Source: a virus (lineage: Duplodnaviria > Heunggongvirae > Uroviricota > Caudoviricetes). From it: DNA of 7,469 nucleotides. How positions within the stretch are numbered: position 1 is the stretch's first letter; the number at the start of each line of letters is the position of its first letter. Position numbers: made by a program. The stretch lies in IMG/VR virus record IMGVR_UViG_2541047174_000016; one strand, written 5' to 3'. Positions 6,001 through 7,469 of this stretch are shown here, one piece after another.

Positions 6001-7469
6001 CACACACAGAACACGGTTCATATCCCCCTCACCCCACCAGCCATGACAAAGTTAAGACGCGCCAGGCAGTGGAAAAGCAAATAGCAACCAGCATTAGTGA
6101 AAATGAAATGCCGACGATTACACAGAGGATCTTCGCCAGCGTTATGAGCTTGTCTGACATGCTTAATCCTCTTCACGATTTCAACGCAATGACCAGTTTT
6201 GCCAGCCCATACAGCATCGGAGACACAGCAATACCGACCGCCACCCACTTAATAGCAAAAGCCAGCGCTCTGCTGACGTCATCAGTTACAGGCGCTTTCA
6301 GTTCAAGGCCGTTTTTCATAGTCAATCTCAACAGAATTCGTTTATACTTTCCCATGTTCTCCCTTGCCTTACTCAAGGTCAGAAACACAAAACCCCGTTT
6401 GCGGCCAACAAACGGGGTTTTACTTTTATTCACTTAGTTTTTGCCAGTTCGCAGGATTTCGTGTTATCCGCCAGTGTGAGCAAACCGCATTTTTCAGCAA
6501 AATATTCTGCTTATCTGTCAATTCCCCAGCACGCCAGCGCGCTCTCCTGGTCACGCCGTGAAACCTGACCGTAGCAGTTGTTTGAGCGAATACGGCAGTC
6601 TCTGCCACCGTCCTTAATCCACCAGCGAATCGCCTCACACGCTCCCCTGCGATCGCCTGCATTAAGCCGCTTATAAAACGTCGACGGGAAACACTTACCG
6701 GGGCCAATGTTATAGGGGCAAAATGACGCGATACCTGCTTTTTGTGGCTCGGTCAGTGGAACTTTTATATTACGCTCCACCCATGCCAGCGCCTTATCCC
6801 GTTCGATAGCGTTAACCCGGTCGCATTTTTCCTTCGACAGCTTCATGCCAGGAATCACAGGCTTACCATCCACCCGGGTGGCTCCACGGCAGATGGTCCA
6901 GATACCCGCACCATCACGGTATGCCGTGGTGTGGTTACCTTCCTTTTCATCCAGAAACTGGTCGAGGATTTCAGGCGCAGAAGCACCTGCGGCAATCAGC
7001 GCCAGAACGGCAGCCGACAGGCCGTATCTGATTTTTGCGTTCATGGATATTTATCAGGGTTTATCGATTTCAAATCCCTGGATATGTTAAGTCTTCAGGC
7101 CAGCGGTGGAGTCTTCAGAGAACCCGTAATTATTCCCGGTAGTTTTCCTCTGTAGGTTATCAACACATCCTGCGCCTCTAAAATTACGGGACGCTTTTCC
7201 GGTAACGGACCATCCCCTTCACATAACCCGGCAGCAACATCCATGAAAAACTGCTTCGCCTGCTTTTTCGCCTCAGCTTCGTAAAACTCCAGCGTGGCAC
7301 CTTCAGTACGGTCAAGACTAATCGCCACATCTGGCAACAACAGTGACGGATACCCACCAATTTCCAGTGCCACAGTAACAGTAATCTTATCCGGGTAATT
7401 ATTTATCCCTTTAACAACCAGTTCGTATTTTTTCTTCATCACTTTACTCTCCCCGCGCCGCCTTACGCC

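Follow-up and report, generated by a model that had tools for sequence, protein, structure and literature searches.

A mosaic slot between the endolysin and spanin genes of a Shiga toxin phage-like Escherichia coli prophage carries a conserved terminator-type hairpin and genes for tiny, predicted membrane peptides

In a 7,469-nucleotide (nt) stretch of viral DNA (IMG/VR record IMGVR_UViG_2541047174_000016; hereafter called the window), which is a piece of a lambdoid, Shiga toxin (Stx)-phage-like Escherichia coli prophage with its lysis cassette on the minus strand, the endolysin gene R and the spanin gene Rz are separated by an insert with a hairpin and two small open reading frames (ORFs), ORF60 and ORF43, of 60 and 43 amino acids (aa). 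Here, we found that this place between R and Rz is a mosaic slot, that ORF60 is under purifying selection, and that the stem of the hairpin shows covariation; the genes themselves were already annotated as hypothetical. Our preferred reading, to which we assign a probability of about 0.4, is that accessory membrane peptides are encoded here by a mobile cassette of the moron type, which belongs to the late lysis programme and adjusts lysis.

Slots of this kind were gathered through a conserved leader motif, which gave 107 loci with an identifiable Rz start, representing 48 distinct sequences, and at least 10 gene orders were found among the 107 loci. The slot holds one to four genes for tiny hydrophobic peptides (at least five families), an antirepressor gene (ant), or both. 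The peptide families are A (ORF60), A-short (shortened relatives of A with 28 and 37 aa, ending in ...AIRWW), B (ORF43), C and C' (phrog_6632, unannotated in UM146 and 2013C-4830), and two further ones, namely, D and E; ant is present as two gene types. In Stx phages and in the Sakai prophages Sp9 and Sp12, for example, the slot consists of ant and then an ORF43 relative (ECs_5722 and ECs_5732). Some part of the slot matches 2165 of 5426 complete E. coli genomes (~40%) and also most Stx phages. ORF60 was found in 14 phage records, among them those of phages that had been propagated on K-12 and E. coli C, and relatives of ORF43 occur in 276 records, mostly of Stx phages, where they follow ant and are often unannotated; viable temperate phages with slot genes include PhiR12 and PhiR5 and, for ORF43, the Stx phages. 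In the Qin prophage of K-12, furthermore, rrrQ overlaps rzpQ by 4 nt, just as the original prediction had described R and Rz in Qin-type cassettes, and direct adjacency of R and Rz is therefore one ordinary state. The same prediction had left it to the comparison of related prophages whether the insert is conserved or variable. It is variable, and its being a decayed piece of a longer gene was rejected, since nearly every copy keeps both frames intact and selection acts on ORF60.

The evidence for selection comes from 19 distinct full-length DNA variants of ORF60, among which the ratio of nonsynonymous to synonymous variation (pN/pS) has a median of 0.21 and reaches ~0.37 for the most diverged pairs. 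In codons 30-60, the variable sites number 8, 4, and 23 at the three codon positions, so that a third-position bias is evident in the hydrophobic helix; ORF60 is thus coding and under purifying selection. The family is characterized by a conserved polar motif, MKNGLE.DAPVT.E.S.A.AFAI[KR], which is followed by the hydrophobic helix. An N-terminal extension, Y[KR][KR]..LRL or KYKR(I/F)(L/F)LRL, is kept between subfamilies by way of synonymous changes (CGA/AGA and TTG/CTG), and the upstream start of ORF60 is therefore considered to be used at least sometimes. The start codon is ambiguous, with candidates at ATG 6355, TTG 6376, GTG 6433, and an internal ATG at 6319 (M13), the last of which would yield 48 aa. 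Both M1 and M13 are conserved, and M1, which opens the frame running from 6355 to the stop at 6173, has a strong Shine-Dalgarno sequence (AGGGAG) in front. The 5' region is homologous between ORF60-type and family C cassettes. Inside ORF60, a 33-codon ORF in an alternative frame (MTSAERWLLLLSGW..., 6181-6282, minus strand) is open in most variants and is probably a by-product of ORF60 conservation.

ORF60 is annotated as a "hypothetical protein" (RefSeq/Prokaryotic Genome Annotation Pipeline (PGAP) WP_001303555.1, 60 aa), corresponds to ECs_2740 in the Sakai prophage Sp14 and to EDL933_RS32545 in EDL933, and bears the UniRef name "Transmembrane protein." It matches phrog_1115 ("unknown function," E = 7e-42), with 118 cluster representatives in Escherichia and Salmonella; ORF43 matches phrog_4906 ("unknown function," E = 7e-24), with 100 representatives, all in E. 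coli. The two ORFs hence belong to phage protein families and are not noise, as had been argued from their packing. In an exhaustive profile search over 1.84 billion representatives, relatives of ORF60 formed only 24 clusters at 50% identity, all of them close, and no bridge to any known family was found among those 24 clusters. Scanning a single genome of each species yielded no relative, and even the reference genomes for the species that carry the family lack it. AlphaFold2 predicts a basic helix (residues 3-14), a loop, and a long helix (residues 23-59) for ORF60, with a mean predicted local distance difference test score of 73, and the net charge is +7.

The hairpin (6389..6421) was given by a terminator scan as 13 pairs with a 7-nt loop, and on either strand the stem is followed by a T-run, which makes the hairpin terminator-like in both directions. 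The hairpin is conserved, in line with its earlier description as a terminator. Compensatory variants of the stem were seen as GTTTG/CAAAC, GATTG/CAGTC, and GGCTG/CAGTCC, and as GAACG/CGATC in Salmonella. In 15 distinct variants, 95.9% of the hairpin cells are paired versus at most 63% in slid-partner controls, and the covariation score is 0.147 versus 0.082 in shuffles, 1 of 500 of which reached it. In ant-type slots, a different, one-way hairpin is present. An ORF60 module that follows ant (L025) brings the same kind of hairpin with a stem variant, and where a module follows a tail-fibre assembly gene (L086), another two-way terminator lies ahead of it; a terminator therefore belongs to the ORF60 module. 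Irrespective of the cargo, the leader upstream of the hairpin is conserved (64 distinct leaders), as it is in part in the Salmonella locus L083. Its 30-nt core (GGCGGATAACACGAAATCCTGCGAACTGGC, 6472..6443, minus strand) is the most conserved non-coding block of the slot, and approximately the first 154 nt of the slot are found alone in many genomes. When read on the plus strand, the leader core contains TTATCCGCC, which resembles a DnaA box.

At the other end of the insert, ORF43 (ATG 6160, stop 6029) begins 12 nt past the ORF60 stop with GAGGA in front, and its stop lies 7 nt ahead of the Rz ATG (6021), inside the Rz Shine-Dalgarno sequence (GGTGAGGGGGAT). The insert of ~490 nt, the hairpin, and the 60- and 43-aa ORFs, together with the good Shine-Dalgarno sequence of each ORF and the tight packing of ORF60, ORF43, and Rz, are all located where the original prediction had placed them, and they lie on the minus strand. 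More generally, the final ORF of the slot often ends in ...RWW-stop, encoded by CGCTGGTGGTGAaATG; the last codons of such ORFs double as the Rz Shine-Dalgarno sequence, and peptides that are otherwise different therefore share a C-terminus. ORF43 is also annotated as a "hypothetical protein" (RefSeq/PGAP WP_001280929.1, 43 aa) and corresponds to ECs_5740 in Sp14 and EDL933_RS33590 in EDL933. Its single strong transmembrane segment (residues 11-33, 23 uncharged residues) has a summed Hessa free energy of -3.45 kcal/mol. Among variants with 60-100% identity, the first 25 residues of ORF43 scarcely change, and conservation is poor in the C-terminal half, with the length and the position of the stop beside the Rz Shine-Dalgarno sequence being kept. 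The frame is intact in nearly all copies. Constraint on ORF43 is nonetheless weak (pN/pS ~0.5-0.8; 22, 16, and 21 variable sites by codon position), and its coding status at the protein level is uncertain. ORF43 and ORF60 are not paralogues, a relation that was ruled out by hhalign (probability 5%).

Several further small ORFs were noticed at such junctions. In many genomes, a truncated ORF60 copy starting ...VTDDISRALAF is fused behind ORF43 (L092 1888-2043, an ST131-type slot; P0081 and P0094), and PGAP calls the fused fragment a 51-aa protein overlapping the ORF43 end; such a fusion points to recombination between cassette members. An "empty" gap of ~300 nt between lysozyme and Rz in 2013C-4830 (L089 1655-1797) and UM146 (L090 1656-1798) contains an unannotated 45-codon ORF (VFDFSKLIREIRMMAEKLSTWKFILIWLVFVIMASGYFIGQIRWW, phrog_6632), the stop of which is 1 nt ahead of the Rz ATG. 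In Salmonella enterica CP030203.1 (L083 2224-2313), a tiny hydrophobic ORF of 29 aa (MICFVAAFMLACDGRSGWGWFLLVGLIVM) starts in an ATGA overlap with the lysozyme stop and weakly matches phrog_14810. Long-leader ORF60-type cassettes (L083 2478-2506; L110, L129, and L154) have a mini-ORF of eight codons (MGREVLSL or similar), whose TGA overlaps the GTG start of the main ORF and which is located inside a possible stem (AGGGA...TCCCT) covering a second Shine-Dalgarno sequence.

As regards expression, scanning for consensus promoters revealed none in the sense direction upstream of the hairpin. The simplest route would be a late transcript antiterminated by Q. One candidate promoter, ATAACA-18-CAAAAT, was rejected, because it is present in few variants only and not in the window. 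In Cappable-seq data of EDL933, a reproducible minus-strand start is reported at 2,786,364 (gene 32545, "stat LB" only, sheet "AGs with d_gTSS"; PMC10469882), i.e., in uninduced stationary-phase cells and in one of eight conditions. The ORF60 and ORF43 accessions of EDL933 are the same as those of locus L001, which is 100% identical to window 5950-6600, and the coordinate was transferred on this basis to 6339, a position 16 nt into ORF60 that precedes the M13 ATG by 20 nt. A transcript from there would allow the M13 form only. An extended -10 element, TGgGAAAGT (6354..6346), would fit this start. Lysogens may thus produce the 48-aa form, and the 60-aa form may come from late mRNA. A supplement of Sakai Ribo-seq (PMC5597208) has no entry at the ORF60 and ORF43 coordinates. 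The original prediction that both ORFs are real, co-translated members of the lysis operon holds in that they are real, conserved, and in the same orientation; it does not hold in its strict form, since the start inside ORF60 in uninduced cells means that this ORF is not purely a co-translated part of the late operon.

These findings can be accommodated in the following scheme. The cassette, placed in a recombination-prone slot, would begin with a hairpin that acts as an intrinsic terminator and continue with a short leader, which includes a ribosome-binding site, and with genes for small inner-membrane peptides; the last peptide gene would be translationally coupled to Rz. During lytic growth, RNA polymerase modified by Q would proceed from the late promoter past the hairpin, and the 60-aa form, ORF43, and Rz would be made alongside holin and endolysin. 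Without Q, the hairpin would stop read-through and the weak internal promoter alone would give the 48-aa form; a predicted antisense RNA, described below, may also mask the ribosome-binding site of the long form. As non-essential membrane-active peptides, ORF60 and ORF43 would most likely adjust the integrity or charge of the inner membrane and thereby the timing or efficiency of lysis by pinholin, signal-arrest-release (SAR) endolysin, and spanins. A role in lysis timing, as originally predicted, is possible. Such a role would fit the skew of the cargo to tiny membrane peptides, the constant place upstream of Rz, the coupling to Rz, and the precedent of hokW-sokW; indeed, hokW-sokW, which encodes a Hok toxin, has been shown to assist lysis and phage release of the Sp5 prophage (PMC8621323).

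The genomic contexts of ORF60 relatives also bear upon this scheme. Right upstream of Rz, a relative was found behind an R21-like lysozyme with a class II holin, in two Salmonella cassettes with other PF00959 lysozymes and Phage_holin_2-type holins (Phage_holin_2_3 in one of them), and behind a GH19 endolysin with a Phage_holin_3_1 holin; one of the two Salmonella cassettes (L219) has an additional P22-type antirepressor. Given these varied partners, the link of ORF60 is to Rz or to the junction and not to one type of holin or endolysin, and it is not obligatory. Indeed, ORF60 relatives were also found outside lysis cassettes, after the tail-fibre assembly gene of L086, where the module lies between two terminators, and at a prophage end (L217).

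Several points weigh against the lysis-adjusting cassette. The positions in L086 and L217 argue for an accessory function that is independent of context, and the slot also carries antirepressor genes, which are unrelated to lysis. The start mapped in stationary cells without induction points to a role in the lysogen and not at lysis. The helix of ORF60 is marginally hydrophobic, with a lowest summed Hessa free energy of +3.4 kcal/mol, internal lysines, and a longest uncharged run of 16 residues; it is less hydrophobic than the SAR segment of the neighbouring endolysin (+2.05 kcal/mol). Of the transmembrane-like segments originally predicted for both ORFs, that of ORF43 is hence borne out and that of ORF60 is borderline. 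ORF43, for its part, is nearly without codon-position bias. Truncated and chimeric copies exist (the ORF60 fragment in ST131-type slots and a frameshifted ORF43 in L054), and individual copies are therefore dispensable.

Alternatively, the insert might be a moron of benefit to the lysogen, with its own promoter active in the lysogen and with peptides acting on host membrane proteins or incoming phages (superinfection exclusion or small-protein regulators), the lysis cassette being a tolerated site. HK97 gp15 and DicB are small prophage-encoded, membrane-acting exclusion proteins and would be precedents. In addition to the sense start inside ORF60 in uninduced stationary-phase EDL933, the location of relatives at a prophage end and, flanked by terminators, in a classical moron position, the presence in the same slot of ant as an example of unrelated cargo, and the slightly lower guanine-plus-cytosine (GC) content of the insert (0.43-0.50) relative to R (0.51-0.58) are all in its favor. 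That start was seen in a single condition, however, and the -10 element fitting it is a weak one that the commonest ORF60 variants do not conserve. Also, PADLOC gave no match, and a neutral insertion site would not predict a cargo strongly skewed to tiny membrane peptides right upstream of Rz. We thus regard a benefit to the lysogen as a somewhat unlikely explanation.

Two other explanations invoke an antisense RNA. On the plus strand, a promoter scan detected a promoter-like site, TAGTCA-18-TATACT (6319..6348), and an RNA of ~78 nt is predicted to run from ~6355 to the T-run past the hairpin and to be complementary to the Shine-Dalgarno sequence and start of the long ORF60. This RNA would fold with z = -3.6 into a free 5' part and a terminator stem. 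Families A and C, which are not homologous, each have an antisense -10 element (TGcTAAAAT in C) at a distance of 42-46 nt from the hairpin, and D has a weak one; the shuffle fractions were 0.019, 0.005, 0.003, 0.007, and 0.12 (A, 0.019; C, 0.003; D, 0.12). The slot might host shuffling self-contained cassettes, each combining a two-way terminator, a cis-antisense RNA, and a tiny membrane peptide in two forms, long from the late transcript and short from the internal promoter; such cassettes would constitute an unrecognised layer of lysis timing or prophage toxicity. We consider this unlikely.

A module resembling type I toxin-antitoxin (TA) systems appears distinctly improbable to us. ORF60 and the analogous first ORFs would then be membrane-damaging peptides, blocked by a cis-antisense RNA that starts from a promoter in their first codons and ends at the two-way hairpin, a layout that resembles symE/SymR and P22 ant/sar. 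Besides the antisense promoter-like site, the hairpin with T-runs on both sides, and the predicted fold, this view can draw on the recurrence of the antisense -10 in the first ORFs of families A and C (shuffle fractions 0.003-0.019), on the TATACT that by eye is retained in L086 beside a different two-way terminator, and on ant-type slots, which have a one-way hairpin and no antisense promoter. No toxin family in Pfam or NCBIfam and no antitoxin RNA in Rfam was hit at E <= 1, however, and the whole window has no Rfam match at that threshold. Among 64 listed peaks of Hfq crosslinking and analysis of cDNA (CRAC), none is at the Sp14 locus (Sakai 2,692,05x-2,692,13x). The sense start at 6339 is downstream of the predicted antisense start at ~6355, and the antisense RNA would thus overlap only late read-through mRNA. 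The -10-like sequence, furthermore, may reflect conserved Lys-Tyr-Lys codons.

Hfq-bound RNAs have been described near other slots; namely, the EcOnc12, EcOnc11, and EcOnc10 peaks give a near-identical signal (Sakai NC_002695.2 1779522-1779569, 1946819-1946867, and 2234239-2234287; Tree et al. 2014). EcOnc11 belongs to the Sp10 region. The spacing of the three peaks had made them promising candidates for RNAs of the slot. EcOnc12 was rejected as a slot RNA, as its position in Sp9 is immediately past Rz/Rz1, on the strand antisense to the late operon. EcOnc10, which maps in Sp12 ~360 nt beyond Rz and overlaps the end of the opposite-strand gene ECs_2255, and EcOnc23, which is in tail genes, were rejected as well. 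At the place corresponding to the EcOnc peaks, the window carries bor.

That the peptides are inert filler, with the small ORFs and above all ORF43 kept since a translated frame into the Rz ribosome-binding site sustains Rz expression, would suit the pN/pS and missing third-position bias of ORF43, its poorly conserved C-terminal half with fixed length and stop, the RWW-stop endings dictated by the Rz Shine-Dalgarno sequence, the chimeric and truncated copies, and the tendency of AT-rich intergenic DNA toward hydrophobic peptides (PMC11188072), but it is very unlikely given the clear purifying selection on ORF60 with its polar motif MKNGLE.DAPVT, the nearly invariant N-terminal 25 residues of ORF43, and the ORF43 frame being intact in nearly all copies.

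The positions of the features in the window are given in Table 1. In loci that are identical around the insert, a class II holin is encoded upstream of R, and the N-terminus of R is Ala/Gly-rich and weakly hydrophobic (summed Hessa free energy, +2.05 kcal/mol), which is typical of SAR endolysins. GC content is 0.43-0.50 in the insert versus 0.51-0.58 in R and 0.51-0.65 in Rz, and this difference is small. The terminase and portal genes come after bor. The 651 nt around the insert (window 5950-6600) are 100% identical to many chromosomes of O157:H7 and other E. coli; the whole window is intact in none of the complete E. coli genomes in the collection, and its best full-length matches have an antirepressor gene in place of the two small ORFs. 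The window was also noticed to be mosaic in itself, in that its packaging and portal genes and bor match Stx2-phage-like prophages with ant in the slot and its slot is identical to the Sp14/CP-933U type. The YdfR/DUF1327 gene, another uncharacterised resident of the lysis cassette, sits between holin and endolysin in this cassette type, as in K-12 Qin, and an internal start (2787401, stationary phase with salt) is given for it in the Cappable-seq table of EDL933.

Table 1. Features of the lysis cassette and of the R-Rz insert in the window
Feature	Position	Strand	Remarks
YdfR/DUF1327 gene	7442..7095	-	
Endolysin R, 177 aa	7044..6511	-	Pfam PF00959 Phage_lysozyme, E = 6e-25; PGAP "lysozyme" WP_000992126.1
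Insert between R and Rz			489 nt
Conserved leader downstream of the R stop	6422..6510	-	
Hairpin, 13 pairs	6389..6421		T-runs on both sides
ORF60 5' untranslated region and Shine-Dalgarno sequence, AAGGCAAGGGAG	6356..6388	-	Read off the sequence
ORF60, MGKYKRILLRLTMKNGLELKAPVTDDVSRALAFAIKWVAVGIAVSPMLYGLAKLVIALKS	6173..6355	-	phrog_1115
Sense transcription start and putative extended -10	6339..6354	-	Start from Cappable-seq (PMC10469882); -10 inferred
Predicted antisense unit	6319..6432	+	Promoter scan and hairpin
ORF43	6029..6160	-	phrog_4906
Rz, 154 aa	6021..5557	-	Pfam PF03245 Phage_lysis, E = 6e-50
Rz1, embedded in Rz	5801..5616	-	PF06085, E = 3e-22
bor	5232..5525	+	

Shiga toxin is set free when Stx phages lyse their host, and holin, endolysin, and spanins are usually taken to explain the lysis cassette in full. 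If the peptides of the slot tune membrane collapse or spanin action, the release of toxin and phage would be affected; if they act in the lysogen, they would represent new small-protein effectors carried by prophages. Either way, ORF60 and ORF43 are well-defined and cheap targets for deletion and expression tests.

Comparison with known systems did not assign either peptide to a family of known function. Pfam, NCBIfam, and PADLOC gave nothing at E <= 1 for ORF60, ORF43, or an 86-aa extended frame, and Pfam gave nothing for five other slot peptides; a profile search of the PDB returned chance matches only (E > 1), and a literature search by accessions and locus tags found no paper mentioning ORF60 or ORF43. 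The antiholin, second-holin, and type I toxin identities that the original prediction had floated thus find no counterpart, as neither peptide matches holin, antiholin, or type I toxin families, nor do they match defence proteins. The parallel it drew with P2 LysA survives in position, K-lysA-lysB/lysC in P2 being comparable to R-ORF60-ORF43-Rz/Rz1 in the window; it fails in sequence, as BLASTP gave E = 14 with ORF60 and, with ORF43, E = 0.04 across 13 hydrophobic residues, and LysA is a protein of 141 aa compared with 60 and 43 aa here.

As small proteins with predicted hydrophobic helices in a lysis cassette, ORF60 and ORF43 resemble holins and antiholins, from which they differ in having no match to a Pfam holin family. 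Dual-start pairs of holin and antiholin are known in lambda S105/S107 and S21 68/71. The candidate starts of ORF60, M1 and M13, likewise differ by a basic N-terminal extension, but they are 12 codons apart compared with 2-3 codons in the known motifs.

In comparison with type I TA systems such as hokW-sokW of Sp5 and symE/SymR, the slot has small hydrophobic or basic peptides (strongly hydrophobic in ORF43, marginally so in the 60 aa of ORF60) and a predicted antisense RNA over the ribosome-binding site and start codon. It differs from them in that homology is seen neither to such families as Hok, Ldr, TisB, Ibs, and Zor nor to their RNAs and in that ORF60 and ORF43 are inside a late operon and not in a stand-alone locus. 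In enterohaemorrhagic E. coli, moron sites encode the short RNAs AgvB, AsxR, and EcOnc03, which run antisense to the late operon antiterminated by Q and in which the terminator is conserved and the 5' part varies (Tree et al. 2014, PMC4104026). The antisense RNA predicted here would share this layout; those RNAs, however, are located downstream of a moron next to PR' and not at the R-Rz junction, and the slot terminator differs from their conserved TTGCCCGAACCCA(C/T)TCGGGC. No sequence similarity to them was found, Rfam gave no match, and no CRAC peak is at the Sp14 locus.

Our preferred reading likens the cassette to the morons of lambdoid phages. The moron concept is reportedly due to Juhala et al. 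in 2000, and bor, lom, stx, and HK97 gp15 are examples. Unlike morons, the cassette has its terminator upstream rather than downstream of the genes, a promoter that is weak and internal to an annotated ORF, a last ORF coupled to Rz, and a cargo consisting of an array of very small peptides instead of a single gene. Like morons, it is inserted between genes that are adjacent in relatives (rrrQ and rzpQ of Qin), is mosaic among close relatives, and is tolerated in a Q-antiterminated late operon; the slightly lower GC content, the attached terminator, and the transcription start reported for it in one of eight conditions may be further points of resemblance.

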